A DNA stretch of 64,000 nucleotides, from NCBI GenBank assembly GCA_964548565.1, contig CAZJTF010000001.1:212-64211 (forward strand), read 5' to 3'. Below are positions 31,710 to 63,304 of this stretch, piece by piece. The notes beneath the pieces were generated by a model. That model was not told the origin of the DNA. It ran no database searches and was given only the letters and a program-made list of their open reading frames with translations. The stretch's first letter is position 1, and each line of letters starts with the position of its first letter. This DNA comes from an uncultured Planctomycetales bacterium (lineage in GTDB: Bacteria; Planctomycetota; Phycisphaerae; UBA1845; PWPN01). The position numbers and the translations under genes are program-made.

Positions 31710-31789
31710 TTTCGGCCCGGGGGAGAGAAACCGGGCGCAACCCCAGCCCGGCCAGACTCCGGGCTGGTCACATAGAGGGAGTACGAACC

Positions 31790-34469: not shown

Positions 34470-34665
34470 TGCTGACCTCCTCTGCTGCCCGGCCATGGCA
34501 CAGCGGCGGAAGGCCGGGGCTGCCGCCGGGATGATGTGTCCGTGCGCCGCATCGTAGAATCCGCCCGCCCGACGTGCAATCCACCCTGCTTGCAGCCAGC
34601 GCGAATGCGATTATGCTCGATTCGCCACCGTAAGGCTAAAAACACGTCCAGCAGGGGGTGTTCAG

Positions 34666-36873: not shown

Positions 36874-36945
36874 CCGGCCGCGCACGCGGCCTGGGCCATT
36901 CGGATGACTCGCCCGCCGGGCGCGGGCACTCTCAGGAGAAGCAAC

Positions 36946-38244: not shown

Positions 38245-38305
38245 CAATCGACATCCGATCTGGCTCGCGTCTGCCTCCTTGCCGCCGTGGCTGGAGGAGG
38301 CGAAG

Positions 38306-42183: not shown

Positions 42184-42203
42184 GACTTCGGTGTCGAAGG
42201 CGG

Positions 42204-44394: not shown

Positions 44395-47300
44395 TTACGG
44401 CACGCACGTCGGAGCAGCCGAGTGCCGCCACGGGACGGCTGGTCCGCTGACGCACCGCACGAACTGCTCGAAATCCGCCGCGCCGATGATGTGGTCGCCG
44501 TCCCGGTCAAAACAGAGGCAGGCCGGGTCCGCGCCCGCCGCCCAGCCGCCCGGTCCGGTGATGCAGGCTTGAAATGCGCCGAAATCCGAATGATCCACAT
44601 CGAGATCGCCGTCCGCGTCCGCAAAGGGGAAGGCGCATGCCGGCCGGCACGGCTCGTCGGGCTGCTGGATCGGGCGCAGGAAATCCCCCCGCCCGAGCGC
44701 GCGATCCACGATACGGATCTCGTCGATCATGCCATAGAACCCGCGGTCCGCCATACCTCCGCCGCGTCGGTTCCCGATGATCAGGGGAGCCGGGCCGGCA
44801 GGCGCGAGTGAAACGCCCGTGACGTGCCCCTCGAGCTGCCCGTCAAGGTACCAGCGCAACTCGCCGCCCTGCGCGACGAGCGCGAAGTGGTGCCACGTCC
44901 CGGCGGTGACCGGCGTCTGCCCAGGCTCGACGTGGTCCGCCTCGTCATCCCCCCGCCAGAAGACCGACAGCACGTTCCCGCCCGCCCCCGCGTGCAGTCC
45001 GATGGCCAGGCGCGACTCGGTATCGAGCGATGATCGCTTCTGCGTCACCAGCCTGCGTCCGACGGACATGGGCGCGGTGATCGGAGATGTGTCGAACGTG
45101 TTGAAGAAGCCTTCGAATGTGAGCGTCTCCTGCAGCGAGCCGGCGTTGCTCGGCAGGTGCGTGTCAATGGCCGCGCTCAGGTTGCCCGGCAGCAGCATGG
45201 CGAATTGCCCGGCGCTCGTTGCCGGAGCATCTCCAACGCCCGGCTGCCCATAGGCGACGTACGTCAGTGGTGAGCCCGCGCCTGCCGTTCCGTCGGCGCC
45301 GTGAATGTTCTCGATCGCCCCGCACAGTCCGCTGTCAACGAGCCCGTGGCTGACCGCCGCCCCTGGCTCGGCCTCGAACCCCGAGCACCACAGGACGCCC
45401 GTTCCGGCCGCTCCGCATGCCGCGTCGCACGACCCGCCGTCCAGCAGGAACTCCGCCGGCGCCCGCACCTGGTCTGAGATCCGCACCTCGTCGAGCAGTC
45501 CGTAGAACCCGCGGTCCTCGACGCCCGACAGACGGTTGTTCGCGAGGCTCACCGGGCCGGAGCCCGCCGCCACGAGCGTCGACGCCGGCACCTGCCCCTG
45601 GAGGTTGCCGTCGAGGTACCACGTGATCGCGGCTCCGTCGTACACGAGCGCGAAGTGGTACCATCGATCCGCCAGGACCGGCGTCGTTCCCAGCTCGAGA
45701 TGGTTCGTTCCGCTGGTGTCGTACCAGAACACCGACAGCAGGTTCGCCGGGCCGCCGCCGCCTGCGATCGGTGCATTGCGATCGGTGACCGCCGCGTATG
45801 TGTTCCCCACGCGGATCTCGTCGATCTCGCCCTTGTTGCTGTTGAGCCCCATGACGAGCCGAATGTGCGAAATCGTGGCCGTGCTCGACGTCTGGTTGCT
45901 CAACATCCACGTCGCGGGCTCCGTGACGGGCACCGCGGCTCCGGCCGGGTAGAAGTTCATGAAGAACTCGTCCGCCGAGGATGCGTGTGCGACGATTTTG
46001 CCGATCACCAGGTAGGTCGTGCCCGCTGTCACCGTCCCCGCGACGTTTGTGGACGCGTTGAGGAAGAACTGGTCCGGCGTGGTGGAGCCTCCGCTCGTCA
46101 TGCCGAACCGCGCGACCTGCGTGCTCGTGCCCGGCGTGAAACTGATCTCGAGGTTCTCCGCGCTGTTCGCGGACGTCGACGTTTTGCGCAGCAGCCCGCT
46201 GACATACAGGACCCCGCCCTCCTGCGCCAGGTTGATGCTGCGGCTCAGGGCTCGCACCGCTTCCACCGTCCCCGACGCGCCGGCGTTCACGCCGCTCAGG
46301 CGCGAACCCACGGACGGAAACAGCGGCGTCGTAAGGCTGACGGAATCATTGGTCAGGATGGCAAAATCCGCATCGGCGTCATCCCAAGCCCCTCCCCAGC
46401 CGATCCCGCCCGCCTGCTGGTGGAGAGTCGTGCCACTGTATTGGAACCCCTCGTAGTCAAAGAGGCCGTCGGTCCCGGGCGCGGATCCGCCGTGCAGCCC
46501 GATCGCCAGGCGCGACTCGCCATCGCCGTCACTGCGTTTCTGCGTCACCAGGCGGCGCCCGACATACGTCGGCGACGTGATCACCGCGCTCTCTTGCGTG
46601 CGGAAGAACCCCTCGAACGTCAGTGTGTTCTGCAGGTTGCCCGCGTTGCTCGCCAGGGCCGTGTTGATCCCGACGCTGCGATCGTTCGGGAGTGCAATAG
46701 CGAAGGCGCCGGCGTCGCCCGTCGGTGCCGTGCCGGTCGCCGGCTGCCCGTACGCGGCGTACGTCAGCGGCACCGTCCCCGCCGGGGTGCCGCTCGCCCC
46801 CGCGGCGTTGCGCACGATCGAAACCGGCTGCCCGTTCGTGACCGGACCGATCGCGAGCGTTTCAAACGGCGAGCGCCACAGCGGCGGCGCGGAGTTCGAC
46901 ACCTCGCCGAAGTCCGTGACGCGCTCCGGGCGCGCCGAATCGCCTGCCATCGTCCAGGGGAGCCGCCACACGTTCGCCCCGGAGCGGTCGCAGAAGTACA
47001 GCCGCGAATCCGTCTTCATCAGGGCGTTGCCGTCCGCCCAGAACGCGTAAAACGGGTCGCGGGCGTGCCGCGGACGACGGACGTACGAGTGGTTGTACAC
47101 GCTGCCCGTCGTCACGTCGCGCACCTTCGTCCACGTCGCCCCGAGGTCCTGGCTGATCCACACCCCGACCTCGCCGCCGGTGCCGTACACCTGCGGGCCG
47201 TTCTCCGTCGGACCGATGATGCGGAGCGTCTCGCCCTCGAGATAGAGGTTCCCCACGTCATAATTGTGGTCCGACACGGTGACCACGCTGTGGACCCACT

Positions 47301-48360
47301 CAGCGCCCGACCACCGCGCCAGCCGCCAGGTGCGGGGGTCGCCTGCGGGGCCGGCGGCGTAGTTCTTCGACGTGATGTACAGGATGTACGGTTTACCTTG
47401 CGCGTCGAGCTGGGTGTCGTTGATGTAGCACAGCATGCCCTGCGCCTCGTAGTTCACCACGAGGGCCGGGTTGCTGACCTGGCTGAGCGGCAGCGTCAGG
47501 GGCGTGCCGTTCACCGTTGTCCACGTCTGACCCCTATTCACTGTCTGCATGTAGTACAGATTCGTCCGCCGGTCGACATTGCCGCCGGGGTGGTAGTTGA
47601 ACGCCGTCCCGATCCTGCCATCGCGCTCCATTGAGGTCTGGTAATGGCCGCCAAATCCGACCATCTTCGAATGCGGCGTCCAGTTCACGCCGTCGGCGCT
47701 GGTGGCCCAGTACAACTCGCGTCCGGCCGTGTACTTCGTGAACATGTGCAGGAAAAGCGGCGGGTTCACACCGTCGTCGAGATACCACGGCTGCGGGTAC
47801 GTCCGCTCGTCGGTCACCTGGTGCTCGAACGCCTCAGTCGAGTACGGCTGTGTGCTCCGGTAAATAAACCCCGGCCGCGCCGTGCCGCGCCCGCTGATGA
47901 AGACCCACAGGTAACCGTCTCGGTCAATCAGCAGCGAGCCATTGTCGTGCGGATCGTTAATGCCCACCTTATGGTAGACTACAGTGGGGCGGGGGACGGT
48001 GCACGTCGCGTGGTCATACCACGACGCCAGGATGAGCAGGTCGCCCGTGGCAGCGTCCACGCCGCCGTAGACGAAGAACGTCTTGTCGACGGCCGGCGCG
48101 TAAATGGCGATCGGGACGTGATTGGCGGTGTACGTGCCCAGCCCGCCCGAATACTTCGGGCCCCATTCATTGTCCTGGCCGATCGTGAACCAGATGCCGC
48201 GGTAGCCGTCGAGTTTGGTGTTCGGCTCGACCGCCGCCGTGGCTGTCGCGAGCGTCGCGAGTACCGTCGCGACGATTGCAGCCTTTCCCGACACGGATCG
48301 CGACCACCATCCCGATACGCTCGTGCGGACTGCCTCCGCTGCACCCTGTTGCCCACACAT
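44395..48360 (-). CDS. 1321-aa secreted BNR_4 + two LamG domains (the first split by a nested module) + dockerin-like tail
   Basis: The N-terminal YRGIWFTIGQDNEWGPKYSGGLGTYTANHVPIAIYAPAVDKTFFVYGG is paralogous to 42204..44222. LamG motifs: WYHFALVYDGAAITWYLDGNL, FYGLLDEVRISD, WHHFALVAQGGELRWYLDGQL, FYGMIDEIRIVD. The nested module is at 45781..46470. The tail at 44398..44637 is FADADGDLDVDHSDFGAFQAC...CLCFDRDGDHIIGAADFEQFVRC...C. Confidence 0.75.
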   Translation of the reverse strand: MCGQQGAAEAVRTSVSGWWSRSVSGKAAIVATVLATLATATAAVEPNTKLDGYRGIWFTIGQDNEWGPKYSGGLGTYTANHVPIAIYAPAVDKTFFVYGGVDAATGDLLILASWYDHATCTVPRPTVVYHKVGINDPHDNGSLLIDRDGYLWVFISGRGTARPGFIYRSTQPYSTEAFEHQVTDERTYPQPWYLDDGVNPPLFLHMFTKYTAGRELYWATSADGVNWTPHSKMVGFGGHYQTSMERDGRIGTAFNYHPGGNVDRRTNLYYMQTVNRGQTWTTVNGTPLTLPLSQVSNPALVVNYEAQGMLCYINDTQLDAQGKPYILYITSKNYAAGPAGDPRTWRLARWSGAEWVHSVVTVSDHNYDVGNLYLEGETLRIIGPTENGPQVYGTGGEVGVWISQDLGATWTKVRDVTTGSVYNHSYVRRPRHARDPFYAFWADGNALMKTDSRLYFCDRSGANVWRLPWTMAGDSARPERVTDFGEVSNSAPPLWRSPFETLAIGPVTNGQPVSIVRNAAGASGTPAGTVPLTYAAYGQPATGTAPTGDAGAFAIALPNDRSVGINTALASNAGNLQNTLTFEGFFRTQESAVITSPTYVGRRLVTQKRSDGDGESRLAIGLHGGSAPGTDGLFDYEGFQYSGTTLHQQAGGIGWGGAWDDADADFAILTNDSVSLTTPLFPSVGSRLSGVNAGASGTVEAVRALSRSINLAQEGGVLYVSGLLRKTSTSANSAENLEISFTPGTSTQVARFGMTSGGSTTPDQFFLNASTNVAGTVTAGTTYLVIGKIVAHASSADEFFMNFYPAGAAVPVTEPATWMLSNQTSSTATISHIRLVMGLNSNKGEIDEIRVGNTYAAVTDRNAPIAGGGGPANLLSVFWYDTSGTNHLELGTTPVLADRWYHFALVYDGAAITWYLDGNLQGQVPASTLVAAGSGPVSLANNRLSGVEDRGFYGLLDEVRISDQVRAPAEFLLDGGSCDAACGAAGTGVLWCSGFEAEPGAAVSHGLVDSGLCGAIENIHGADGTAGAGSPLTYVAYGQPGVGDAPATSAGQFAMLLPGNLSAAIDTHLPSNAGSLQETLTFEGFFNTFDTSPITAPMSVGRRLVTQKRSSLDTESRLAIGLHAGAGGNVLSVFWRGDDEADHVEPGQTPVTAGTWHHFALVAQGGELRWYLDGQLEGHVTGVSLAPAGPAPLIIGNRRGGGMADRGFYGMIDEIRIVDRALGRGDFLRPIQQPDEPCRPACAFPFADADGDLDVDHSDFGAFQACITGPGGWAAGADPACLCFDRDGDHIIGAADFEQFVRCVSGPAVPWRHSAAPTCVP

Positions 48361-48476
48361 GATGAGACAATCCTCCTGGCGCGGGACAGGCCGCGCTGCA
48401 CTTCTCCACAGGAGAGGACTTCACTGTTGTCCCGGCCGGAATCCTGCAACCGCGCGGCTCCGCCCGGTCCCCGCGA

Positions 48477-49307
48477 TCATCTCGTATCCCGGCGGCGCAT
48501 GCCGAGCAGGCCCGCCACGCCGAGCAGCGCCAGCGTCGCCGGCTCCGGGACGGCCACCGACGCCCAGTCGCTGCCGATCCGGATCTCGTCGATCTCGGCG
48601 TACGAATTGCTTGCCCCCACGTTCACGCGCAGCTGGGTCAGCACATCGCTGCGCGCACCACTGGTGGTCAGGCTCCAGGCAGCCGGTTCCGAGGCGGGCA
48701 CCGTATCGTTCGGGCCGTACACCTTCAGGAACAGCTGGTCCGATCCGGCCGCGGAGGAGACGAGCTTCGCGACCAGGAAGTATACGGTGTCCGCGCCGAT
48801 CGGCGCCGCGCCGTTGTTGGTATCCACCGCGTTGAGGCCAACGTAGAACACGTCGGCGGCGCTCACGCCGAAGCGAAAGCCGATTGTGCCGCCGGTGGTC
48901 CGGAACTGGAACTGCACGTCCGAGCCGGCCGTCGCGGCGCCGTCCGCCCCCCGGCGAACCAGGGTGCTGGCGTACAGGACGCCGTCCTCGGCCAGGCTGA
49001 CATTCTGGGCCAGATTTCGGACCGCCGCCCGGTCCACCGTGGCGCCGTCGCTCGGCGGGATGCGGATCAGCCGCGAGCCGACGGGCGCAAACGGGAACGC
49101 AGCCGAATCGAGGCTGACCCCGTCGTTGGTCAGCCGCGGATCACCCGTCGTGTTCACCCACGGGCCGCCCCAGCCGATCCCGCCGTTCTGGTCCGCGATG
49201 GCCGTGCCCGTGTAGTCGAACCCGTCGTAATCCAGCAGGGCGGCTTGCGCCGCTCCCGCGGCCGCAAGGCACAACACCCCGCACACAAGAGTGCACGTCA
49301 TTTTCAT
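48477..49307 (-). CDS. PEP-CTERM protein consisting of one free copy of the GIGWGG module
   Basis: ATG at 49307 after GGAGAAG. Signal peptide. LLDYDGFDYTGTAIADQNGGIGWGGPW ... YAEIDEIRIGSDWASV. The tail VAVPEPATLALLGVAGLLGMRRRDTR is at 48480..48557. Confidence 0.75.
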   Translation of the reverse strand: MKMTCTLVCGVLCLAAAGAAQAALLDYDGFDYTGTAIADQNGGIGWGGPWVNTTGDPRLTNDGVSLDSAAFPFAPVGSRLIRIPPSDGATVDRAAVRNLAQNVSLAEDGVLYASTLVRRGADGAATAGSDVQFQFRTTGGTIGFRFGVSAADVFYVGLNAVDTNNGAAPIGADTVYFLVAKLVSSAAGSDQLFLKVYGPNDTVPASEPAAWSLTTSGARSDVLTQLRVNVGASNSYAEIDEIRIGSDWASVAVPEPATLALLGVAGLLGMRRRDTR

Positions 49308-49417
49308 AGCTTCTCCTTCCGCTCCGAAAAGCACTCAGCCGATCTCGTTGCGTCAATTGCTCCGAAAAGGCGTCCCGCCGTCTCCGGACCTCACGTCCTC
49401 CCCGTGACTGCTCCACC

Positions 49418-52048
49418 TCACTGCGGGCAGCCTGGAGTCGCCGTCCACACGATGCCGGGCCCGGTCGCGCACAGTTTGAACGCGCCAAAATCGGCCACGT
49501 CGACATCCTCGTCGCCATCCCGGTCAAAACACTTGCATTCGTTCGGAATGGCCGGCGTCTCCGAGAAACACCGCTGGAACGCCCCGAAGTCGTCCATGTC
49601 GACGTCGTCGTCATTGTCGTCATCCGCGAACGGCACATTGCACCACATGCCCAGGCACGGGTCGAAGCCGACTCCCGCCGTCATGAACTCCGTCGGGGCG
49701 ATCACGTGGTCGCTGATCACGATCTTGTCGAGCAGGCCGTAGAACCCGCGCGTACCGTTGCCGGCCGTCCGATCGTTGCCGATCGCGATGGGCGCGCTGC
49801 CCGGCCCTATCAGGTTCGGCGCCAGCACCTCGCCTTCCAGTGTCCCGTTCAGGTAAAAGCGGATGTCCGTTCCGTCGTACACCATCGCGAAGTGGTACCA
49901 CGTGTTCGGCTGCACCGCCGTCGTGCCGCGGACGACGGTCAGCGTCGACGTATCCGCCTCCGCCCAGACGATCGCCAGCACGTTATTCGTCGGCACGGCC
50001 TCCGTGTTGCCGGTCAGCCCGATCGCCAGCCGCGATTGCCCTTCGGAAGCCGACCGCATCATGCTCACGAGGCGGTCGCCGATGGGCGCGGTGCTGTCAA
50101 CTACGGTCGAGGAGTGATTGAAATAACCCTGGACGGTCAGTGCGTTCGCCAGGTTCCCCGCGTTGCTTGGCAACGTTGTGTTGATCGCCGTGTTCTGCAG
50201 GTCGGGCATGGAAACCGCGAAACTCTGGGCGAGTGCGCCGGGATCGATCAGCGCCGGGATCGCCGGAATCCCCGTCTGGCCGTACTGCACGTACAGGCTG
50301 GCCACGACGCCGGCCGGCGTGCCGTCCGGCGGCCCCGCGGAGTTGTCGATGCAGCCCGGCGTCTCCGCCGGCTGGCCTGACGTGACTGCCTGCCCGTCGT
50401 TCGTCTCGAATCGCGACCGCCAGAGCAGGCCTGCTCCGGGCGCGCCGCCCTTGACCGCGAGTTCATCGACCGTCAGGGCACGATCCCACAGGCGGATTTC
50501 GTCCATCACCCCGTAGAAGCCGCGGTCGTTGGTCGCACCGCTGGTCCGGTTGTTGCCGATCCCGATCTTGGCCGTCCCGGGCGTCACGATGCCCGGAGTG
50601 TTCGCCGTGCCTTCAAGCGCACCGTTCAGGTACCACGTCAGCGTCGTTCCGTCATGGATGGCGGCAAAGTGGTACCAGGTGTTCGCCGCAAGCGGTGTGC
50701 TGCCGACTTCCAGGTGATTGACGAGCGTCGGGTCGACGGCCGGCGGCACCGGCGGAATCGACTCCACCCAGAACGTCGAGAGGACGTTGCGAAGCTCGCC
50801 CGGGTCGCCGCGCGGTGCGTTGGGGTCCGTCACCGCCGCGTACGTCGACCCGATGCGGATCTCGTCGATGTCGGCCTTGTTATTGTTCGCTCCAACGATC
50901 AGGCGGAGGTGAGAAATCACCGAGTTGCTCGCCGTCTGATTCGTCAGCATCCACGTCTCCGGCTCCGTGACCGGCACCGGGTCGCCTGACGCATAGAAGT
51001 TCATGAAAAACTCATCGTTCGTGGAGGTATGTGCGACGATCTTGCCGACGACCAGGTATGTCGTACCAGCGGTAACGGTCCCCCCGATGTTCGTCGACGC
51101 ATTCAGGAAAAACGCATCCGGCACCGTGGCGCTTCCGCTGGTGATGCCGAACCGCGCGACCAGCGTCGTGTTTCCCGGCGTGAAGGCGATCTCCAGGTTC
51201 TCCGCGCTGTTCGCCGAGGTCGAACCCTTGCGCAGGAGTCCGCTCACGTACAGCACCTTGCCCTCCTCCGACAGGTTCAGCGGAATGCTGAGCGGACGTA
51301 CCCCTTCAATGGTGCCCGTCGCGCCGGCATTCGGGCCGCTCAGGCGCGAGCCCACCGACGTGAACAGAGGCGAGGTCAGGCTCACCGAGTCGTTGCTGAG
51401 GAATGCAAAGTCGCCGTCTGCGTCGTCCCACGCGCCGCCCCAGCCGATCCCGCCTGACTGCCCGTGAATTGCGGTACCGGTGTAGTCGAACCCCTCGTAG
51501 TCAAACAGCCCCTCCACGACACCCACTCGCACCGCCTGCAGACCCACCGCCAGACGCGATTGGCCGTCATCCGCGGACCGCTTCTGGCTGACCAGACGCT
51601 GCCCCACGAACGTGCCGCCTACCGGGGTCGCTGTCGGCACGTAGAAGTAGCCTTCAAACGTGAGCGCGCTGGCCAGGTTGCCGGCGTCGCTCCGCAAGTT
51701 GCTGTTGATCCCGGTGCGCCGATCGTCGGGGGAGGAGATCCCGAAGGATCCCGCGGCATTGCCCGGATCGATCAGGCCGGGAATGCCCGGCAACGCCACC
51801 CCATACTGCACGTACACCAGCGGTGCGAGGCTCGCGATGCTGCCGGTCGCCTGCCCCTCGGGCCCGACCAGGTTTTCCACCGGCCCTGCGACCTGCTCGT
51901 GCGTGACGGCCACACCATTCTCCGTCTCGAAAGGCGAGCACCAGACCGGCTCTGCCTGCAGAACGCCGGCCGGCACCAGGATTGCCACGGCAATCGCGCC
52001 CGCGGCCAGCGTGGTGCCAAGAATCTGCGCAACACGGGTTGACGTCAT
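49418..52048 (-). CDS. 876-aa secreted double-LamG protein (the first LamG split by the nested GIGWGG module) + dockerin-like tail
   Basis: AGGAGG lies 6 nt upstream of the ATG. Signal peptide. WYHFAAIHDGTTLTWYLNGAL, FYGVMDEIRLWD, WYHFAMVYDGTDIRFYLNGTL and FYGLLDKIVISD. The nested module is at 50825..51517. The tail at 49421..49645 is FADDDNDDDVDMDDFGAFQRC...CKCFDRDGDEDVDVADFGAFKLC...C. Confidence 0.75.
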   Translation of the reverse strand: MTSTRVAQILGTTLAAGAIAVAILVPAGVLQAEPVWCSPFETENGVAVTHEQVAGPVENLVGPEGQATGSIASLAPLVYVQYGVALPGIPGLIDPGNAAGSFGISSPDDRRTGINSNLRSDAGNLASALTFEGYFYVPTATPVGGTFVGQRLVSQKRSADDGQSRLAVGLQAVRVGVVEGLFDYEGFDYTGTAIHGQSGGIGWGGAWDDADGDFAFLSNDSVSLTSPLFTSVGSRLSGPNAGATGTIEGVRPLSIPLNLSEEGKVLYVSGLLRKGSTSANSAENLEIAFTPGNTTLVARFGITSGSATVPDAFFLNASTNIGGTVTAGTTYLVVGKIVAHTSTNDEFFMNFYASGDPVPVTEPETWMLTNQTASNSVISHLRLIVGANNNKADIDEIRIGSTYAAVTDPNAPRGDPGELRNVLSTFWVESIPPVPPAVDPTLVNHLEVGSTPLAANTWYHFAAIHDGTTLTWYLNGALEGTANTPGIVTPGTAKIGIGNNRTSGATNDRGFYGVMDEIRLWDRALTVDELAVKGGAPGAGLLWRSRFETNDGQAVTSGQPAETPGCIDNSAGPPDGTPAGVVASLYVQYGQTGIPAIPALIDPGALAQSFAVSMPDLQNTAINTTLPSNAGNLANALTVQGYFNHSSTVVDSTAPIGDRLVSMMRSASEGQSRLAIGLTGNTEAVPTNNVLAIVWAEADTSTLTVVRGTTAVQPNTWYHFAMVYDGTDIRFYLNGTLEGEVLAPNLIGPGSAPIAIGNDRTAGNGTRGFYGLLDKIVISDHVIAPTEFMTAGVGFDPCLGMWCNVPFADDDNDDDVDMDDFGAFQRCFSETPAIPNECKCFDRDGDEDVDVADFGAFKLCATGPGIVWTATPGCPQ

Positions 52049-52165
52049 GGCAGCCTCCTTCCGTTTCGGGCGGGTTTGCCCTTCCCCCGCTCTCCATCGG
52101 GCGGCCTGATGGAATGCCGCTCTCCGCGATTCGAAGCTTCTACATCTCAGCCCACGCCGGTCCGA

Positions 52166-53029
52166 CTACGGGATCCGGTCGAGAACCTTGTAATACGCAG
52201 CCTGCTCCTCGGGCTTGGGTGCAACCGAGGTGATGGGTCGCAGTGCCTTCAGCAGATCCGGCCGCGCCCATCGCACCGACCCGTCTCCGAACAGCCGCAT
52301 GTAGCCTTTCCCCTGGTGCGGTGCGGAAACGTAGCCGACATCAATGCCTCCGCCCTTGAACTGGTCCACTCCCGTGAAGTCGGAGTAGATGACTTTCTGG
52401 GCGAGGCTCGTCGTGATCAGTCTTGCGGGGTTTGCGTTGAGCATCGTCTCGGTGTAGCGCCCCAGCCGCCAGTAGGTGATGACGCCGGCCGGCATCGGGT
52501 CGGTCCGGGCGCCCGCGCCGATCTGTGCATTGGCGGCCATGACCTCGATGAGGCGCGCGGGATACGAGCAGCGGAGCTGCACCTTCGGGTTCAGGGCCTC
52601 CCACTCGCTCTCCCAGTACCACTTGTTGTCGGGGCCGTTGAATGCGAGGCTCGCGCTGTGCGAGGCATGCTGGCCGGGGCAGTAGAAAGCCCGCGGGTCC
52701 TTGATGTACTTGCGGTTGGCCAGTTTCCCCAGGTTGATCGTCCCGACCGCCGGGCTCCGCATGTAGTAGGTCGTGAATGAGCTCGCCGTTCGGTACAGCG
52801 GCGGCAGGTTTTCGCGCGAATCGTTGGCGTAGGCAAGGATCGCCAGGCTGAGCTGGTGCAGGTTGCTGCTGCATTGGGAGCGCTTGGCTGACTCCCGTGC
52901 CGATTTCAGGCTCGGAATCAGGATGGCGACCAGCAGGGCGATGATCGCGACAACCACCAGCACTTCAATGAGCGTGAATGCCCGAACTTGTCGGCTCGGT
53001 CGTGAACCCTGCAACGTCGGCATGGGCAT
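52166..53029 (-). CDS. DUF1559 / HX9DG-type prepilin-like protein (type II secretion/type IV pilus pseudopilin-like)
   Basis: ATG at 53029 after GGAGG. The prepilin leader and methylation site are [36 protein letters not shown]. The C-terminus is [17 protein letters not shown] (an H-x(9-10)-DG motif). Confidence 0.8.
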
Positions 53030-53278
53030 GAGGCTGCCTCCGACAACGAGATAACAACGCCGCCTGAAAAGACTTGCATGGCCGGACCTGCCGCGGCCGA
53101 TCTGACATTCCTGCGCCCCGGGCCGGATCGATATGAACCGGATCCGACACGGGGACAGACCGTCGGCAGTCCACCTGTTCCCCTGCAGCTTATGCTTTGC
53201 CGCCCAGCCATTCAAGACAGAAATCGGTGGTAACCGGTAACTCCGATCCGCGGGCGTTTTGATGTTGGGCGTCAGAGC

Positions 53279-53309
53279 AAAACGCACCGCACCTTTTTTG
53301 ATGTGGTGC
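53279..53309 (-). terminator. possible intrinsic terminator between the two cassettes
   Basis: The minus strand reads gcaccac-atcaaaaaag-gtgcggtgc-gtttt (7/9-bp stem with one bulge, followed by a T-tract), about 75-100 nt downstream of the stop at 53381. Confidence 0.3.
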
Positions 53310-53380
53310 TCGTCCACCTGGCCCAACGGCACGGCTGCGACAAGGGGTAACCGCACCGGATCGGTCTGCCCGGTCCGAAA

Positions 53381-56300
53381 TCAATTGAGGCAGTTGGTAT
53401 CGATGTCCCGGTTCGCCCCTGAGAGGCAGTCGAGCAGCATCTCCACGTCCGCCTGGTCGACGAGGGGGTCGAGGTTGAAATTCACCGGCTCACAGCCGGG
53501 CAGCACCTCGATGTTCCCGTTCGGCGTCAGGCAGATCTGGACATATCCGAAGTCCGTCTGGTCCACATCGCCATCCTTGTCGACGTCCGTCGGAATCGCA
53601 AACGCCGAGCGGCTGGCCAGCGCGTAAACGTTGCCGTCGAATGCCGTCAGGTACATCACGTTGCCGATGATGCACGGTGCCGAGAGCAGGGGGGTTCCGA
53701 ACCGCATCGACCAGACTTCGGCTCCTGTATCGAGGTTGAGGGCGTACAATCGCCCGTCGCCGCAGGGCACGTAAGCGATGCGATCCGCGATCGTGGGGCT
53801 TCCGGCCAGCGCCGCGAACGTGTTGTTGTACGGCGCCATCTTCAGGGCCGACGTCGCGAGCTGCTTTTCCCAGATCTGCGCGCCCGTATCGAGCCGGAAG
53901 CCGCGAATGTACCCCGTGCCGCCCGCGACCACAATGCCGTTCGCCACCGCCGGGGTCGACGCGGAACGCCCGCCACCCAGTGGGCGCGTCCACCTTGAGG
54001 AGCCGTTAGCCAGCACAGCGCAGTGCAGCGTGCCGCTGTAGTCGGTGAAGAGCACGTCATTGCCGACAATCACCGGGCTGCCGTGCAGCCCCTGGACCGA
54101 GTACTGCCAGATCGTCGCCCCCGTCGCAGCGTTTACTGCCCGCACGTTGTTGGCCCAGTTGGCCGGCACCACCACGATGTTGCCCGTCCCCGACGGGCAG
54201 GCGTTTGAACTGATCCAGTCCGCCCCGTAACTCTGTGGCCAGTTCTTCGAGCCGGTGGCGGGGTTGAACGAGGCGAAATACGCGTACGTTCCCGCGAACA
54301 GCGCGCCGTTGAGCAGAAGCGGCCCGCTGTACTGGAACCGCTGGTACGGCGACCCCAGCTCAGAACTCCAGATCGGCGCGCCCGTCGTCCGGTTCAGCGC
54401 GTGCACGACGCCGCCGTGCGAGCAGGCGTACACGCGATCCTGGTCCAGCGTCACGCTGTGCGAGACTGCCGCCGGCGTGGGCGTGAACCACACGCGGGAC
54501 CCATCCTCCGCCTTGAGCGCGAGCACGCCGTTCTTCTCGAGGTCCCCGCGATCCTTCACGCCGACATAGACCGTCTTATCCTTCACGACGGGGGAGCCGA
54601 AATCGATCGTCCCTTCCGTATCGGCCGCCCAGACCGGCCCCAGGGGAGGCTCCAGTGCACCTGCGGCCACCCCGCCCCGCGCCGGCCCGCCGCCGAACTG
54701 CGTCCACTCGCCGTCTGGAGCCGTCCGCGGCTTCCGCAGCCCGAGCACGGTGAACGTCGTCTGCGCGGTGGATGTTTCGCCGCGGTCATTCGTCGCCGTC
54801 ACGTGCAGATCATATGCACCGCGCGGAATCTGCGCCGCCGGCAGCATCGTCCGCCAACTCCACTGCCCCTGCCGCGTGAGCGAGCCCTCCGCGACCACTT
54901 CGCCGGAATGCTCGACGCGATAACCCACCGACTCCACGTCCGCCGACGTTTCGTACGCGTTAACGATCACCAGCACGTCGTCATTCGGCACGAGCACGGA
55001 GTTCGACGGCGTCACGATCTGCAGCTGCTTGCCGTCGGCGATCCATCGCATCCGGCTCGTCGACCGGTCCGTCGTGACGCTGATCACCTTGAACCCGGCC
55101 GGCGAGCAGTCGATCCCACCGAAGAGGAAGGTCGCGGTGTTGTAGGACGTCATGCTGCCGACAGACACCGTGTGCTGCGAGTGCCAGTGGCCGCTGAACA
55201 CCGCTTCCGCTGACCACGACTGGAATTGCGTGTGCTCTTCCTGAGACGGCGAGTAGTGCTGGAAGATGAACAGCCGCTTGCTGCCGCGAAGAAGCTGCAG
55301 ATCCTTGGCGACCCACGCCTGCTGCTGCGTCGTCTTCTGGATCGCGTTCAGGATCAGGAAGTGGCAGTCCGCGTAGTCGAACGAGTAGTAGTCGGGCCCC
55401 AGGTACTTGCGGTAATTCGAGGCGCCGCCGCTGTTCGCGTCGTGGTTGCCGAACACGCTGAATACAGGCACCGCCGAGCTGTTCACGCCCGCCACGTACC
55501 CGTCGAAGTGCGACAGGTTGCTGCCCGAGTCCGCCAGATCTCCCGTGGCCAGGATGAATTTCGGCGGGCTCTTCAATGCCGCCACCTCGCCCAGGGCCGA
55601 CGTGAGAAGCGCGGTCGTCCCGTTCCCGCCGATGTGAATGTCGGAGATCTGCGCGAAGTCGAACGGTCGCGACTCCTCGGCCGACGCCAGTGCGAAGCTG
55701 AAATCCGCCGGCGCCGAGCTTCCGCTGATTCGCTTGTACCACGTGTTTGTCTTTGCGTACCCGCTCGGAAGCGAGATGTAGATCAGCCGGGCGTCTCCTG
55801 CCGCGTTGGGCAGCGTGTACGTGCCGTCGCCCGCCGTCACCGCGAGGTCTATCGTGTCCGACACACCTACGCCGGCGATGCCCGCCTCACCCTCGTCTTT
55901 CACGCCGTCGCCGTCAGCATCATTGAACACGGTGCCGGTGATCGGTCCGCTCCACCCGCCTCCCCGGTAGATCACGATCGGCGGAACCGTCCCCGCCTTC
56001 ACGTCTTCGGCATACTTGAGCATGTTGCGCATCAGTCGCGGGGCCTGCAGCTTCGCCTGGGTGTTGCCGATGTTCCGCGCCTTGTCCGGCGCCAGTGACA
56101 GGAACAGCGCCCGCCCGGTCCCCCAGCCTGCCTCGACGATGCTGGCCAGCGACACATCCGTGGCGCCGTCGCCCGCGAGCACGCCCACCTGCTCGAACGT
56201 GACGATGCTCTCCCAGGATGTCGACCACGTGGCGCTCCCCGTGTATCGCCACCCCTGGAGATTCGAATCAGAGATGACGTTCGGCGTGCTGAACAGCTGG

Positions 56301-56791
56301 TGCCCGGTCTGCACGCGATAGACCAGGTCGAAATCCGGGTCCCCGCGGACCACGCGCGCCGGCAACGGGACCCAGCTCTCCTGCGCGACGGTCTGGTCAG
56401 CCTGCGTCAGCATGATGACCGTCCCGCCGTTGTTCACGAACTGGTTGAGCGTCGTCGCGGCGCTCGCCAGGGCCGATTTAATCGTGCTTTGCTGCGTGCA
56501 GAAGCTGCCGACGATAAACGTGTCGAAACCGGCGAGATTGATCGCCTGACCGCTCTGCACCTGGGCAGTCTTGTCGGTATAGCTCTGCCCGATGTCCGTG
56601 AGCAGCTGGCCGAGCCCCTTCGTGTTCGAGAACTGGTCCTGGTAGTCCAGAATCGCCACGGTAACCGCCCCGCGCGCCGACAGGGACACCGCCAGCGCGA
56701 CCAGGATCGCGAGTGCGCCCGCGCTTCTCCCTGCCCGCCCTGGTCCCGCTGTGTTGACCTGCTCCGCGGAACGAACGACCGATCCCGACAT
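53381..56791 (-). CDS. 1136-aa secreted multidomain protein: GATase1/ThuA-like + SdrD-B-like + metallophosphoesterase + Ig-like + PQQ-type beta-propeller + dockerin-like tail
   Basis: Start at MSGSVV (56791). Signal-like segment ALAILVALAVSLSARG. GTVFNDADGDGVKDEGEAGIAGVGV is the SdrD-B-type motif. The calcineurin-like phosphoesterase motifs are ISDIHIG, ATGDLADSG, VFGNHD and FSGHWH. Repeated V(Y/F)xGxxxGx(L/V)xA beta-propeller blades (BamB/PQQ-like). The tail at 53384..53602 is DVDKDGDVDQTDFGYVQIC...C..C. Confidence 0.7.
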   Translation of the reverse strand: MSGSVVRSAEQVNTAGPGRAGRSAGALAILVALAVSLSARGAVTVAILDYQDQFSNTKGLGQLLTDIGQSYTDKTAQVQSGQAINLAGFDTFIVGSFCTQQSTIKSALASAATTLNQFVNNGGTVIMLTQADQTVAQESWVPLPARVVRGDPDFDLVYRVQTGHQLFSTPNVISDSNLQGWRYTGSATWSTSWESIVTFEQVGVLAGDGATDVSLASIVEAGWGTGRALFLSLAPDKARNIGNTQAKLQAPRLMRNMLKYAEDVKAGTVPPIVIYRGGGWSGPITGTVFNDADGDGVKDEGEAGIAGVGVSDTIDLAVTAGDGTYTLPNAAGDARLIYISLPSGYAKTNTWYKRISGSSAPADFSFALASAEESRPFDFAQISDIHIGGNGTTALLTSALGEVAALKSPPKFILATGDLADSGSNLSHFDGYVAGVNSSAVPVFSVFGNHDANSGGASNYRKYLGPDYYSFDYADCHFLILNAIQKTTQQQAWVAKDLQLLRGSKRLFIFQHYSPSQEEHTQFQSWSAEAVFSGHWHSQHTVSVGSMTSYNTATFLFGGIDCSPAGFKVISVTTDRSTSRMRWIADGKQLQIVTPSNSVLVPNDDVLVIVNAYETSADVESVGYRVEHSGEVVAEGSLTRQGQWSWRTMLPAAQIPRGAYDLHVTATNDRGETSTAQTTFTVLGLRKPRTAPDGEWTQFGGGPARGGVAAGALEPPLGPVWAADTEGTIDFGSPVVKDKTVYVGVKDRGDLEKNGVLALKAEDGSRVWFTPTPAAVSHSVTLDQDRVYACSHGGVVHALNRTTGAPIWSSELGSPYQRFQYSGPLLLNGALFAGTYAYFASFNPATGSKNWPQSYGADWISSNACPSGTGNIVVVPANWANNVRAVNAATGATIWQYSVQGLHGSPVIVGNDVLFTDYSGTLHCAVLANGSSRWTRPLGGGRSASTPAVANGIVVAGGTGYIRGFRLDTGAQIWEKQLATSALKMAPYNNTFAALAGSPTIADRIAYVPCGDGRLYALNLDTGAEVWSMRFGTPLLSAPCIIGNVMYLTAFDGNVYALASRSAFAIPTDVDKDGDVDQTDFGYVQICLTPNGNIEVLPGCEPVNFNLDPLVDQADVEMLLDCLSGANRDIDTNCLN

Positions 56792-56940
56792 AGGACAGCT
56801 CGACAAATAAGGGCGCTGCCGGGTCAGACAGAAACTTTCCAGCCGACCCGGCAGCGCCGGCCCTGAAAACTGTCTACCGGGAAGCGGGCTGCTCTCCCCA
56901 TCGCCCGCTCCCCCGGTAGAAGCGTGACTCCGCCTGCCCC

Positions 56941-58515
56941 TCAGCGCGACAGGCTGCGGCGACGCCTCGCCGCGACGATCCCGCAGGCGGCCATCATCAT
57001 CAGGCACAGCCCGGGTTCCGGAATCTCGACGACCAGCGGCGTGCCCGGAATCCCGCCGTACCACGTGTAGTAAGCGCCATTGTCGGCGCCGCCGTTGCCC
57101 CAGCTCGCCAGCCCGACGCTGCCCGCCAGGATCGGGTCGTTCAGGTCGGTGATGACCGGGTAGTTGATCGGCAGGCCCCCGACGGGGGTCACCTGCACGA
57201 ACAGCTGGTTTCCGATGGCCTTGACGCTCAGGTCGAACGGAACTTCCGTCCCCGCCCCGCCCGAATCATCCATGAACACGAACAGAGGATTCGACTGGTT
57301 GTCGCGGAACAGCTCGGACCAGACGCCGTCCTTGAACTTCTGCACCGACAGCCCCTGCGGCGCCCGCTCCCACATGTTCGTCGCCGTGATCGTCTGCCGG
57401 GCGAAGTTGACCCGGTAGAATGCGCTGTCGTTCTCCTGCACGCGCACGAGCACACCCACCCCGTCGTCGTCCAGGTTGGCGACCCGCACCTTCATTTCGT
57501 AGTTCGACATCGCGCTGCTGCCGGGCTCGTTGACAACGACGGCGGGGCTGATGAAGTCCACGTTCGGCGTGGCCTGCGTCGCCCATTCGTAACCGTTGCT
57601 GTCCTCACCGATCCGGCCCTTCGGGAACTGCAGGCGGAAATTGCCCAGGTCGTCTCCCTGGCCGCCCGTGTTGCCGGCGGAATTCCGCATCGTCACCGCG
57701 CGCCAGCTCACCGGCGACGTGAACGATTCCGAAAACAGCGTGTTCGCGTTGTTCGCGTCGGTGACCGTGACCTGGCTGGCCTCGACACCCCAGAGCGCCC
57801 GGAGAGCCGAGGGCGAATTGGCGGTGCCGCCATTGCGCTCATACCAGGAGTGAACGCCGATCTTGCCGGCCTTCAGGTCGGCATCCGTGCCGCTGTGGAT
57901 CAGCGTGTTGTCCACGTAGACCGACCAGGCCGTCCCATTCACCTCGACTTTGACGTTCATGGGGAAGTAATTTGCCGCGTCATTGTCGGTGATCTTCGGC
58001 ACGAACGTTGTGCTGGGGGCGGCGATCTGCGTGATGGCGTTGTTGACCACCTTCTGGACCGACACGCCCCTGCCGAAACCGAGGTTGCTGCTCTGGTTGC
58101 GCAGCCCCACGCGGAAGTAGTTCCCCGTGTCCTGCCAGCCGAACACGACCCCGAATCCGTCGTCGTCGTTCGTCGTCAGGGTCGTCGTGAAGTTGTACGC
58201 GTCCGGGGTCGTGAAATTGTCGTTGATCATGATGTACGGGGTGTACCGGCCGTCCGTCGAGGAGGTGCTGTCACCCCACCGTCCGCCGCCCGATTCCTGC
58301 AGCGCGCCGGTCCGCAGGTGGATGCCCCAGTTCGGCTTCTCAACCGTCGCCGGCGCCAGGGTCGGCGACTGGTTGGGGTTGGTCGGGTTCGGATCGACCC
58401 ATCCGTTGTAGCTGTTGATAAAGGGGTCGCTGATCAGCGGGTCCCCCGGGGCGCCGAGCGCCGGCAGCGCCGCCGCCGCGAGCGACAACAAGGCAAGAAT
58501 TCGCACGATCGTCAT
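56941..58515 (-). CDS. 524-aa PEP-CTERM protein built from two DDDG-motif beta-sandwich modules
   Basis: AGGAGGG lies 7 nt upstream of the ATG. Signal peptide MTIVRILALLSLAAAALPALGAP. NDDDGFGVVFGWQDTGNYFRVGL and LDDDGVGVLVRVQENDSAFYRVNF. The tail VEIPEPGLCLMMMAACGIVAARRRRSLSR is at 56944..57030. Confidence 0.75.
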   Translation of the reverse strand: MTIVRILALLSLAAAALPALGAPGDPLISDPFINSYNGWVDPNPTNPNQSPTLAPATVEKPNWGIHLRTGALQESGGGRWGDSTSSTDGRYTPYIMINDNFTTPDAYNFTTTLTTNDDDGFGVVFGWQDTGNYFRVGLRNQSSNLGFGRGVSVQKVVNNAITQIAAPSTTFVPKITDNDAANYFPMNVKVEVNGTAWSVYVDNTLIHSGTDADLKAGKIGVHSWYERNGGTANSPSALRALWGVEASQVTVTDANNANTLFSESFTSPVSWRAVTMRNSAGNTGGQGDDLGNFRLQFPKGRIGEDSNGYEWATQATPNVDFISPAVVVNEPGSSAMSNYEMKVRVANLDDDGVGVLVRVQENDSAFYRVNFARQTITATNMWERAPQGLSVQKFKDGVWSELFRDNQSNPLFVFMDDSGGAGTEVPFDLSVKAIGNQLFVQVTPVGGLPINYPVITDLNDPILAGSVGLASWGNGGADNGAYYTWYGGIPGTPLVVEIPEPGLCLMMMAACGIVAARRRRSLSR

Positions 58516-58566
58516 CTTCTGCCCTCCTGAGGCTGCTGCCTCGGTTGAATGTCGAACACCTCCAGC

Positions 58567-61500
58567 CTACTCATTGGCACAGTTCGCGTCCAGAGGCATA
58601 TCGCCTGAATAGCATGCCTGAAAGATCGCAAAGTCATCCATATCGACGTCCGTGTCGCCGTCGCTGTCCGCCCGGTTGCACCGTACGTCCGGGTTGGTCC
58701 GCGGAATGGTGGGCCCGCTCGCGCAGGTCTTCCAGAGAATAAAGTCGAGATCGTTCACCCGGTTGTCGTCGTTCAGATCCGGGATGGGCCGTCCGGCAAC
58801 ACCGACGACACGCACATTGTCGAAAACGCCGGCCGTATCGATGTACTTCGTCCAGTCGAAGCCGATCCCCAGGTAGTTGTTGATCTCGTCGACGCGGCCG
58901 TCGGCGTCTCCCATCCCCCACACTGTCGCGCCGATCTTGCCCTGCAGCAGGGGGTTCGACGGATCGGAGAACGACCACATGTACTGTGTGACGCCGTCCG
59001 CCGTCGCGTTCGGCCCGCCGTAATCGCACTCGGAGTCGCTGTCCAGACAGAGCTCGGTCACCTTGATGTTGAAGTCAGCCCCGGTGGCCTGCAGTTCCAG
59101 GCGCCATCTCTGCCCCGGGCGATACACGAAGCCGGCGTTGTAAAACATCTCCTGGTAGGTGCCCGCCAGCCGCTTCTGGACCGACACGCCCTGCGGCGGG
59201 CCGCCGTTCGCGTTGTTCGCCTGGCTCATGAACATCAGGCGGTAAAAGTTCTCCTCGTTCTGGTAGCGGAACAGCACGCCGATCCCGTCGTTGTCCAGCG
59301 CCTGTATGTCCACCGTGTACGTGTAGTCGATCCAGTGGCTCTCGCCGGCCACCGCCCGCGGACCGTCGAAATTGGTCGTGCCCCGCGTGTTGTTGCCCTC
59401 TTCCAGGAAGGCTGTCCCGACAATGTAGCGGTTGTCGCGCGCGCCCAGCGCCTTCAGATCCTCGCGGATGCCGATCCCCGAGGTCTTCGCTCCCGTCCAT
59501 GCCTGGCTGTACGACGCCGACTCGCCCAGTACCGAGTCCACATCGGACATCGTCTCCTGCGTGGCATCCACCCAGCCTTTCGGATCGGGCGCACCCATCC
59601 CGTCGGTGAACACAGGCTGGCTCTGGCCCGCCAGCGTCAGCTTGATCTCGCGGAACTCGTTGACGTTGTTGCCCCAGGTGTGCAGGCCCACCGTGCCGCG
59701 CGTGAGCGGCGCGGGATCCACCACCGTCGCCTGGTAATAGTTGTCCTGTTCGTATCCGGTATCGAGCGTGTCGATCTGGATCCGGAACGTCCCGCCGGTG
59801 CAGATCACCCGCGCCCGCCAGATCTTGAACCCCTCCTCGATACCTCCGCCCGCCGCCCAGCCGGCCGAGTTGTACTTGAAGCCCGCCAGCGGCGTGCTAT
59901 CGTTGTCCCCGGGCGCGGTCGAATCGATATCGCTGAACAGCTCCGAGTACACGCCGTTCACGACCCGCTGAACGCTGATGCCCGACGGCGGCGCGCCCGT
60001 GCTGACCTGCGCCTCGTCCTGGAACGTCAACCGGTAGAAGTTCTTCTCGTCCTGGAACCGGAACAAGAGACCGATGCCGTCGTCATCGTGCGCCTCGATC
60101 ACGGCCTCGTATGTGTAGTCCGTCCAGTTGGTCGCCCCCGGATCCATGCGGACCAGCCGCGGCCCCTGGAACTCCCGCCGCTGACCCGTACCGTCCGCCA
60201 TGTTGGCATTGCTCGACATCTCCAGGGCGGAGTTCTGGAATTTGCGGATCCAGCTTCCGGTCAGGCTGGTTCGGATGGGCACGCCCCGCGCGATGTTCGT
60301 TGCGACTCCGCCCACGACCTTCTGGGCCGAGGCGCCCTGGGCAAAGCCGTAGCTCCCGGTCGCCTCGTTTCGGAAGCCGACCCGGAAGTAGTTGTTGTCA
60401 TCCACGTGCCCGAATACGAGCCCCAGCCCGTCATTGTCGTAACTTCGCAGGCGGGCACGGAGCGTGTAGTCCGCCCCGGCGTTGAACCCGTCCTTCACGA
60501 GCACGTACGGAACGTACTTCCCGTCACCATTCGTGCCGCCGTCGAGCGAGCCGCCGTTCCTCTGGCGACCGTCCGTGGGATCGAGAAGGTTTGCCGTCGA
60601 CAGCAGGCGGATGCCCCATGCGGCGGGCCGCCCCGCGATCTGCGGAACCGCCGGGTCGTACGTGCTTCGCCAGTTGTTGTAACCCTTCGGCAACACGTCC
60701 CCGACCAGCGTGATCGGCGTCGCGTCCGTGGTCACAATGAACGGCGTGCTGACCCCCCCGTAGCTGTAGAAGAACGTCGCGTCATTACCCCACGCGTGCA
60801 GTCCGGCCGTGCCGGCGGGCACCGGGTCGCTGGCGTCCACGATGTCCGGATACGTGATGGTCTGAGGTGACGGGCCGGCCGGATCGTTCACAACCGTCAG
60901 TTGGATTGTCGCCGTCCCGCCGCTGCCCGTGATCCGCGCCCGCACATCGAACGGGATGTTTGAGGCGTACGTGAACAGCGGGCTACCCTGGTTGTCCCGG
61001 AAGATTTCGCTCCAGACACCGTTGCGGCACTTCTGGACCGAGACGCCCTGGGGGGCCCGCTCCCACGCGTTGGTCGCGGTAATCGCCTGACGGACAAACG
61101 TGATCCGGTAGAAGTTCGTATCATCCTGCGCCCGGAGTAACACGCCCATGCCGTCGTCGTCCGTGGCCAGCAACCGGACCTTCGCTTCGTAATCGGCCCA
61201 GGCAGAACTGCCGGCCGCGTCGTACGCGACAGCAATGCCCATGAAGTCCACGTTGGGGGCGTTGTTGGTGGCCCACGTAAAGTAATTGCTGTCGTCCGTG
61301 TAGGCGCCCCGGTGGAAATCCCACCGCAGGTCCCCCAGGCTTCCCAACTCGGTCACCGCCGCGCCCATCGCGTTGGTCGTGAGCATCCGCCGCCATTTGC
61401 CTGCGATGATCGCCGGAAGCTCCCACGTCTCCTGCAGCAGGGTCGCCCCGGCGCCGTCCTCCACAGTTAAGTACTCGCACTCCGTCCCCGAAATGGGGCT

Positions 61501-61833: not shown

Positions 61834-61901
61834 GTTGAGCTCCTCTACCCTGACGTCAGACCACAATTCTCAACCGGCGTCTGAAAACGTCCCCGCTGGT
61901 C

Positions 61902-63255: not shown

Positions 63256-63304
63256 CCATGCGTCACCGCTCACGGATGAGCACAGGGGTTCACGGAGTCG
63301 AACC

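Follow-up and report, generated by a model that had tools for sequence, protein, structure and literature searches.

The DNA analysed here, a 64,000-nucleotide stretch from an uncultured Planctomycetales bacterium (hereafter the window; G+C ~66%), encodes exactly five proteins, P1 to P5, whose open reading frames (ORFs) end in a shared module of ~73-84 amino acids (aa). These tails are a dockerin-fold subfamily of Planctomycetota, mainly of Phycisphaerae, and the module can be called a dockerin-fold homologue with high confidence. It is an abundant variant of a known module type and not a new kind of system. The function that we favour, and hold to be reasonably probable, is that of a Ca2+-dependent, oxidatively stabilised and non-catalytic docking tag on export-competent passengers. 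The five proteins and their modules are as follows.

3001..6351, forward strand: P1, 1116 aa, with a signal peptide, a reprolysin-like M12 metallopeptidase domain, a right-handed beta-helix, a choice-of-anchor Q domain and the module
6130..6348, forward strand: module of P1, 4-Cys type, with Cys codons at 6199, 6238, 6304 and 6340, loop 1 at aa 1049-1060 and loop 2 at aa 1084-1095
44395..48360, reverse strand: P2, 1321 aa, with a BNR_4 sialidase-like/rhamnosidase-like domain, a shared 'DY(D/E)GFDYTG' domain, two Laminin_G_3 domains and the module
44398..44649, reverse strand: module of P2, 7-Cys 'CxCFDRD' subtype with an N-terminal Cys
49418..52048, reverse strand: P3, 876 aa, with the shared 'DYEGFDYTG' domain, two Laminin_G_3 domains and the module
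49421..49657, reverse strand: module of P3, 7-Cys 'CxCFDRD' subtype
53381..56791, reverse strand: P4, ~1136 aa, with a signal peptide, an SdrD_B/MetallophosN region, a calcineurin-like phosphoesterase domain, a PQQ_2 beta-propeller and the module
53384..53608, reverse strand: module of P4, 4-Cys type, with an atypical second loop (NFNLDPLVDQAD)
58567..61866, reverse strand: P5, 1088-1099 aa, with repeated TSP_C/DUF1080-like concanavalin-type domains and the module
58570..58794, reverse strand: module of P5, 4-Cys type, with the most classical first loop (DLNDDNRVNDLD) and the sole tail above the Pfam Dockerin_1 cutoff

With sizes of 876-1321 aa these proteins are large, not giant as the initial annotation had described them. 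An N-terminus resembling a signal peptide, basic and then hydrophobic, was judged by eye to be present on all five. The mechanical ORF of P4 runs on for ~270 nucleotides (nt) to 57064, into the end of the upstream PEP-CTERM gene at 56941..58515; this extension translates into an Arg/Gly-rich sequence that looks non-coding, and the real start is most likely at 56791, where translation would open with the signal peptide MSGSVV.... The start of P5 is likely the ATG at 61833. In P1, which is matched by Pfam Reprolysin_5/4 and Beta_helix, the choice-of-anchor Q domain (NCBIfam choice_anch_Q, aa 1000-1042) directly precedes the module.

Alignment of the five tails with MAFFT gave 13 invariant columns, four of them Cys. 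A hidden Markov model (HMM) built from the five tails and run against 836 six-frame segments of the window matched exactly these tails, each at the end of its ORF. Because testing this model on its own members is circular, leave-one-out profiles were run. The omitted tail was recovered in each case, at E-values of 1.6e-18, 3.3e-16, 4.5e-15, 1.8e-11 and 2e-12, against a best unrelated window segment at E >=0.3. All five ORFs proposed earlier to share one C-terminal module thus exist where they had been placed, and their tails align significantly both with each other and, as shown below, with dockerin profiles.

The anatomy of the module was derived from 566 unique copies pooled from the window, 265 database proteins and 80 genomic loci. 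It is an internal duplication, 2 x [D-x-D/N-x-D-G-D-V-D-x-x-D-F-x-x-F-Q-x-C-x-S/T-G-P-x(6-9)-C], each half comprising a 12-residue EF-hand-type loop, an exiting helix and a loop closed by Cys. Written with alignment positions, the first repeat reads D10-x-D/N12-x-D14-G-D16-V17-D18-x-x-D21-F-x-x-F-Q-x-C28-x-S/T-G31-P...C41, and the second D45-x-D47-x-D49-G-D51-V52-D53-x-x-D56-F-x-x-F-Q-R-C63-x-S-G66...P-x-D-P-x-C75, after which only 1-3 residues remain before the stop codon. The helix motif, given earlier as F-x-x-C, is accordingly corrected to D-F-x-x-F-Q-x-C. The loop positions are acidic or Asn in 76-99% of the copies (91-99% when Asn is included): D10 in 99%, D/N12 in 96%, D14 in 97%, D18 in 92% and D21 in 99% in the first repeat, with V17 in 89%, and D45 in 79%, D/N47 in 91%, D49 in 97%, D53 in 93% and D56 in 98% in the second, with V52 in 83%. 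At position 12, both loops have Asp in 98-99% of the copies and Glu in ~0%. Asp at this position is the habit of dockerins, whereas EF-hands of the calmodulin type have Glu. The second loop of P4, called degenerate in the initial annotation, is indeed atypical, yet it keeps N1, N3, D5, D9 and D12.

The module was assigned to the dockerins because sequence profiles, loop chemistry and predicted fold agree. When the five-tail profile was compared with the PDB, solved dockerins ranked first (CelS dockerin, 1.3e-5). A 64-member profile gave 29 matches at E<=0.01, and alignments covering both repeats were obtained to dockerins only (8x39 double dockerin 1.1e-7, CelS 1.9e-5); the best matches were dockerins at 1.1e-7 to 1e-3, spanning profile positions 3-58, while EF-hand proteins aligned partially or at higher E-values. 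Together with Asp at position 12, these both-repeat alignments establish as real homology what had been noted before as a resemblance. Pfam Dockerin_1 (PF00404) is matched at E<=0.01 by 27 of 57 relatives, the best at 1.1e-7. AlphaFold 2 (AF2) models were obtained for the tails of P1 (predicted local distance difference test, pLDDT, 97.5; predicted template modelling score, pTM, 0.84) and P3 (pLDDT 91.4, pTM 0.80). Both show three helices in the dockerin arrangement, with a helix assigned by DSSP after each loop. In a Foldseek search of the PDB the top 20 matches of the P1 tail were all dockerins, for example 2y3n_B with a TM score of 0.77, a root-mean-square deviation (rmsd) of 1.7 Å and a probability of 1.00; dockerins were likewise at the top for the P3 tail, and for both tails EF-hand proteins superposed only at rmsd >10 Å. 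The predicted fold thus matches dockerins and not calmodulin-type EF-hands.

Other identities for the tails were considered and rejected. A canonical calmodulin-like EF-hand pair (PF13499) does not fit, given Asp and not Glu at position 12, no helix before loop 1, the rmsd of >10 Å and Pfam EF-hand scores below cutoff; the matches of P2 and P3 in Pfam are weak EF-hand matches only. A C-terminal sorting domain of the type IX secretion system (T9SS; PF18962), or another C-terminal domain of beta-sandwich type, was dismissed, the module being helical and the five tails giving no Pfam T9SS match. The features of PEP-CTERM (TIGR02595/PF07589) are absent from all five tails.

Four Cys residues are invariant in the five tails and in 57 relatives. 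The total is 4 each in P1, P4 and P5 and 7 each in P2 and P3, so that two tail subtypes stand side by side in one locus. Among the 431 copies that span the first three Cys columns, the pattern CCCC was found in 309, CC-- in 64 and ---- in 13. The first and second Cys strongly co-occur (odds ratio (OR) 874, p 1e-21), as do the third and fourth (OR 78, p 4e-51), both by Fisher tests in which the relatedness between copies is ignored. Since the Cys are gained and lost in pairs, there are probably two intra-repeat disulfides, C1-C2 and C3-C4. The subtype of P2 and P3 carries C-x-C-F-D-R-D between the repeats and a further Cys ~3 residues ahead of the P-F-A-D start. Across the family this N-terminal Cys co-occurs with the Cys of the CxC motif (OR 18.7), suggesting a third disulfide, which would probably clasp the N-terminus to the inter-repeat CxC.

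The module has much in common with the type I/II dockerins of clostridial and ruminococcal cellulosomes (PF00404; CelS 1DAQ/2MTE, 2VN5/2VN6, 2Y3N): the same duplicated 12-residue Ca2+ loop and helix with Asp at position 12, the predicted three-helix fold, the size, the usual C-terminal place on secreted enzymes and the occurrence of tandem 'double dockerins'. It differs from them in its four conserved Cys, apparently forming two intra-repeat staples, in an extra S/T-G-P...C loop of ~8 residues per helix, and in a very acidic loop, D-x-D-x-D-G-D-V-D as against D-x-N-x-D-G-x-V-N. The profile alignments bear out the earlier statement that the Cys pattern is absent from classical clostridial dockerins. 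The host is also different, a planctomycete of Gram-negative type, as are the passengers, which include peptidases, lectins and phosphoesterases, and no cohesin was found nearby. Extra intramolecular stabilisation is likewise reported for the ScaA dockerin of R. flavefaciens, in the form of an intramolecular clasp (PMC3821032); the stabilisation of the module would differ in being covalent, by disulfides within each repeat or, in P2 and P3, between the N-terminus and CxC.

The initial annotation had supposed that an NCBIfam model might already cover the module. No NCBIfam model matched any of the five tails at E<=10. Among 45 relatives no dedicated model came up either, and NF041540, 'GC-type dockerin domain-anchored protein', matched 2 of them weakly (E>=0.008). 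An identity with this type was therefore rejected, the five tails being unmatched and the Cys positions different, and it is a sister type only. Comparison of the module with 'GC-type dockerin'-like tails by hhalign gave a probability of 95.4% and an E-value of 1.7e-8. Like the module, the GC type and a second type ending in WGPC are Cys-bracketed double-repeat C-terminal tails on common passenger families, and on homologues of P1 they follow the same GAYE-ending beta-helix/choice-of-anchor Q region as the module does in P1. In both types one Cys precedes loop 1 and another stands at the very C-terminus (a terminal Gly-Cys in the GC type), an arrangement that suggests an end-to-end disulfide clasp, and both are without the inserted C1-C2 and C3-C4 loops; relative to the GC type, the module has an insertion of ~8 residues bearing a Cys pair after helix 1. 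Dockerin-like anchors bracketed by Cys are thus a broader theme of Planctomycetota, of which the type in the window is a distinct, unmodelled branch. Literature searches returned no description of the Cys pattern, of a disulfide-containing Planctomycetota dockerin or of a 'GC-type dockerin'.

A profile search of 1.84 billion representative proteins, clustered at 50% identity, found the module in 17,930 clusters at E<=1e-3 and in 7,013 at E<=1e-10. The named matches were metagenome-assembled genomes (MAGs) of Planctomycetes, Planctomycetota or Phycisphaerae, and one match was annotated as 'dockerin type I domain-containing protein'. When GTDB species genomes were scanned for the motif, 188 sites were confirmed, and from these the 80 loci used above were kept. 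They belong to 22 assemblies, of which one is labelled Lentisphaerae and the others Planctomycetota, Planctomycetales or Phycisphaerae; having been gathered with a 13-sequence sub-alignment, the loci are biased toward the 'DFGxFQRCY' type. In the sampled loci of one MAG at least 50 ORFs carry the module, a count that may be slightly inflated by overlapping loci. In 29 of the 80 loci two to six module genes lie within ±8 kb, like in the window.

The module had been expected to lie strictly at the C-terminus. This largely holds, as in the 80 loci a stop codon follows within 5 aa in 118 of 128 complete copies (~92%) and the module is C-terminal in 67 of 68 single-copy representatives. It does not hold without exception, as among the top-scoring representatives 145 had a detectable module and 77 of these carried two or more copies, tandem or internal. 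In one long-read metagenome contig (L083:6250-10354) the module is a separate ORF of 117 aa, 20 nt past a beta-helix gene of 1243 aa. This is probably a frameshift artefact, and many of the short 'stand-alone' database matches may be such fragments or truncations at contig ends. Six very long proteins (P0124, P0137, P0142, P0145, P0190 and P0231) carry 5-14 or more weak double-loop units (12-20 bits) along the chain, possibly a different dockerin/TSP3-like repeat architecture and not a terminal tag. The passengers are diverse and include metzincin with beta-helix, LamG, BNR_4, phosphoesterase with beta-propeller, TSP3, legume lectin, DUF642, FG-GAP, Ig and cadherin domains, and the neighbourhoods of module genes are rich in carbohydrate-active enzymes.

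The C-terminal position can be occupied by another kind of tail. PEP-CTERM sequences consist of a short motif, a transmembrane helix and a basic cluster and are processed by exosortase, in contrast to the module, which is a folded, soluble, helical domain predicted to bind Ca2+. On paralogous passengers, within shared loci and genomes, the two kinds of tail take one and the same C-terminal place. The three PEP-CTERM tails reported earlier for this locus are present, and one further paralogue has no tail at all.

48477..49334, reverse strand: PEP-CTERM protein (Pfam 23.4 bits against a cutoff of 20.7; TIGR02595 23.6 against 16)
31691..32635, forward strand: PEP-CTERM protein with a DUF4394/DUF6923 passenger (TIGR02595 17.3 against 16)
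56941..58515, reverse strand: PEP-CTERM-type protein with the tail IPEPGLCLMMMAACGIVAARRRR, recognised by eye as IPEPG, a hydrophobic stretch and RRRR; partial match to NF038129 only
42204..44222, reverse strand: untagged paralogue with Laminin_G_3 and BNR_4 domains, 48% identical (E 3e-132) to the BNR_4 part of P2

The passenger of 48477..49334 shares 44% identity (E 2e-40) with a domain inside P3 that P2 also has, and the passenger of 56941..58515 shares 41% (E 4e-70) with the N-terminal part of P5; these two PEP-CTERM proteins are thus shorter paralogues of tagged proteins. BLAST searches with the three window PEP-CTERM proteins found no homologues in the 80 loci. Pairs differing only by the tail were found in other Planctomycetota MAGs, supporting the use of module and PEP-CTERM as alternatives. 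In L014:7293-9059 two adjacent genes are 70% identical over 223 aa up to a junction, beyond which one has the module and the other PEP-CTERM, and tandem paralogues in L054:2145-11276 and L059:21-2131, 47-51% identical, likewise change from module to PEP-CTERM at the junction. Among 107 homologues of P1, 43 end in the module (in 4-Cys and 2-Cys forms) and 10 more have it a few residues from the end. Others carry dockerin-like tails ending in ...NAWFNGC (P0338, P0344, P0348, P0351, P0359), probably the 'GC-type dockerin' of NCBIfam, or in ...WGPCP (P0350, P0353, P0331, P0342), probably the WGPC type, and still others an IPTL-like transmembrane signal or a T9SS domain, PF18962 being found only on distant homologues. 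From this variety it follows that the C-terminal slot is modular and the module one of its alternative occupants. The tail-swapped tandem paralogues support a role in docking or anchoring, and give good comparative support to the earlier proposal that the module would be a sorting or docking tag and not a catalytic part. In its essentials, the interpretation of the initial annotation holds.

A cohesin/dockerin 'planctosome' has been proposed for Phycisphaerae, with M12B reprolysin-like peptidases among its components (Andrei et al. 2019, ISME J; PMC6461901), and a 2024 survey noted that Limihaloglobus sulfuriphilus, also of Phycisphaerae, has a scaffoldin with two cohesins (PMC11557425). P1 has exactly the architecture of the dockerin-bearing, non-cellulolytic enzymes, including M12B peptidases, of that proposal. 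The planctosome is itself a hypothesis, and both reports rest on Pfam cohesin/dockerin matches and do not include the Cys-stapled subtype. The window differs from the proposed system in that no cohesin and no anchor joining a Lamin-tail domain (LTD) to a cohesin was found in it. In one of the other loci (L062:13605-14351) a small PEP-CTERM protein with an LTD, the proposed anchor domain of the planctosome, is encoded ~5 kb from a module gene.

Under the favoured reading, passenger and tail would be exported together via Sec, and the tail would fold in an oxidising compartment, bind two Ca2+, as the loop ligands lead one to expect, and be locked by two or three disulfides. The tail would then attach its passenger, by non-covalent binding, to a surface or scaffold receptor, for which a cohesin-like module encoded elsewhere is the most plausible candidate. 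The PEP-CTERM paralogues would use the covalent or membrane route of exosortase in parallel. Several results weigh against this reading. Four of the five tails score below the gathering cutoff of Pfam Dockerin_1 (22.9 bits): only P5, at 23.9, exceeds it, P1 (19.4) and P4 (17.3) fall short and P2 and P3 give no match. Every Foldseek E-value exceeds 0.05 (>=0.07 for the dockerin matches of the P1 tail) and is not significant, as expected for so small a domain (70 residues, helical). The Cys co-occurrence statistics ignore phylogeny, and the copies were gathered with an HMM of 4-Cys sequences. Finally, neither a cohesin nor another candidate receptor was found in the ~40 window ORFs scanned, and there was no cohesin in nine multi-module relatives, in the PEP-CTERM neighbours of module genes or in two annotated contigs. 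The search for a cohesin-like partner suggested earlier was therefore negative for window, related proteins and neighbours. The same holds for exosortase or any other candidate partner in the ~40 ORFs or the neighbours examined, and two signal-peptide-like window ORFs, 9026..9493 and 11738..13288, had no PDB sequence match and no cohesin. These cohesin negatives cover the 64 kb window and neighbours (<1 Mb), were obtained with no purpose-built cohesin HMM, and represent absence of evidence, since only a small fraction of any genome was covered.

An alternative is that the module would be a sorting or secretion signal for a dedicated planctomycetal export or attachment machinery, perhaps cleaved or covalently processed and independent of cohesin. 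We consider this unlikely, although much of the above agrees with it: the nearly strict C-terminal place, 1-3 residues past the last Cys; the many clients, dozens in each genome, whose passengers are unrelated; the exchange with PEP-CTERM in tandem paralogues and with IPTL-like or T9SS tails in distant homologues; the position directly after the choice-of-anchor Q domain in P1; no cohesin in anything examined; and the NCBIfam name 'dockerin domain-anchored' for the sister type. However, tandem or internal copies, as in 77 of 145 representatives, are common in binding modules but would be unusual in a terminal signal, the module has the fold and sequence of a domain known to bind proteins, and the window shows no candidate machinery linked to the module. 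A wider version of the idea, to which we give little credence, is that the Cys-stapled tail and its GC and WGPC sisters are the recognition element of a cohesin-independent surface-display pathway specific to Planctomycetota and functionally parallel to PEP-CTERM/exosortase. If so, tandem pairs would be encoded deliberately, one passenger being displayed both PEP-CTERM-anchored and dockerin-tailed, or alternatively the pair would assemble, the anchored copy serving as the receptor or recruiting it.

The tail could also work without a partner, as a cap stabilised by Ca2+ and disulfides which binds a Ca2+-rich or anionic envelope or exopolysaccharide, or associates with itself, and so retains the passenger non-specifically in a matrix. 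The extreme acidity of the module with its two Ca2+ loops, the association with lectin, LamG, TSP3 and carbohydrate-active passengers and with polysaccharide-degrading loci, the co-occurrence with PEP-CTERM proteins, which are linked to exopolysaccharide-producing organisms (PMC1569441), and again the cohesin not found would all be in keeping with such a cap. We nevertheless regard it as quite improbable, given that the helix faces are conserved (F-x-x-F-Q) and that the subtypes within one genome (4-Cys and CxC, with GC and WGPC in relatives) resemble the partner-specificity classes of type I/II dockerins. A merely compositional similarity, with a chance likeness of acidic low-complexity tails to EF-hands, has practically no probability left, for although the tails are Asp-rich and give several weak matches to EF-hand, TSP_3 and FG-GAP models, it is refuted by the leave-one-out E-values of 2e-11 to 2e-18 against a background of >0.3, by the invariance of the four Cys and their spacing, by the 7,013 clusters and by the very confident AF2 fold.

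The region adjoining the tagged genes at 33645-44222 is likely a set for the utilisation of a rhamnose polysaccharide. Besides BNR_4 proteins it includes the following genes.

33645..34496: xylose-isomerase-like TIM barrel
34666..36873: ceramidase-N/LamG protein
36904..38244: twin-arginine translocation (TAT)-signal GFO/IDH/MocA glycoside 3-dehydrogenase-like gene
38186..41212: glycoside hydrolase family 78 (GH78) alpha-L-rhamnosidase

Prepilin-type N-methylation/DUF1559 (pseudopilin-like) genes at 52166-53356 and 61902-62795, both on the reverse strand, are interleaved with the tagged genes in the same orientation. A strict regular expression for the prepilin motif, which was not validated on the DUF1559 genes of the window, matched in just 1 of the 80 other loci and gave no evidence of enrichment; for this reason the adjacency to the tagged genes is regarded as probably coincidental. 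A collagen-triple-helix-repeat protein with a lipoprotein-like N-terminus (30753-31709, forward strand) overlaps the PEP-CTERM gene at 31691-32635 (forward strand) by 19 nt. No Pfam family was found for the ORFs 11738-13288 (forward), 9026-9493, 32699-33451 and 63290-63997 (all reverse); the first of these (516 aa) has a low-complexity end rich in R, S, D and N, and 32699-33451 resembles a membrane protein and adjoins the PEP-CTERM gene.

Planctomycetota secrete many large surface proteins, whose retention on the unusual planctomycetal envelope is poorly understood. The module marks a very large set of clients, with thousands of clusters at 50% identity and dozens of proteins in each genome. 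Pfam Dockerin_1 misses about half of the members, and they are outside the NCBIfam models. The module is of interest for its predicted stapling by disulfides, for its lack of a dedicated model and for the paralogues with swapped tails, which hint at a choice between docked and anchored forms and are a natural experiment on the exchange of C-terminal address tags. A dedicated profile would improve annotation, define a 'docked' secretome distinct from the PEP-CTERM secretome and give a handle on the receptor, and a disulfide-stabilised dockerin may be of practical use in designer scaffolds under oxidising conditions.

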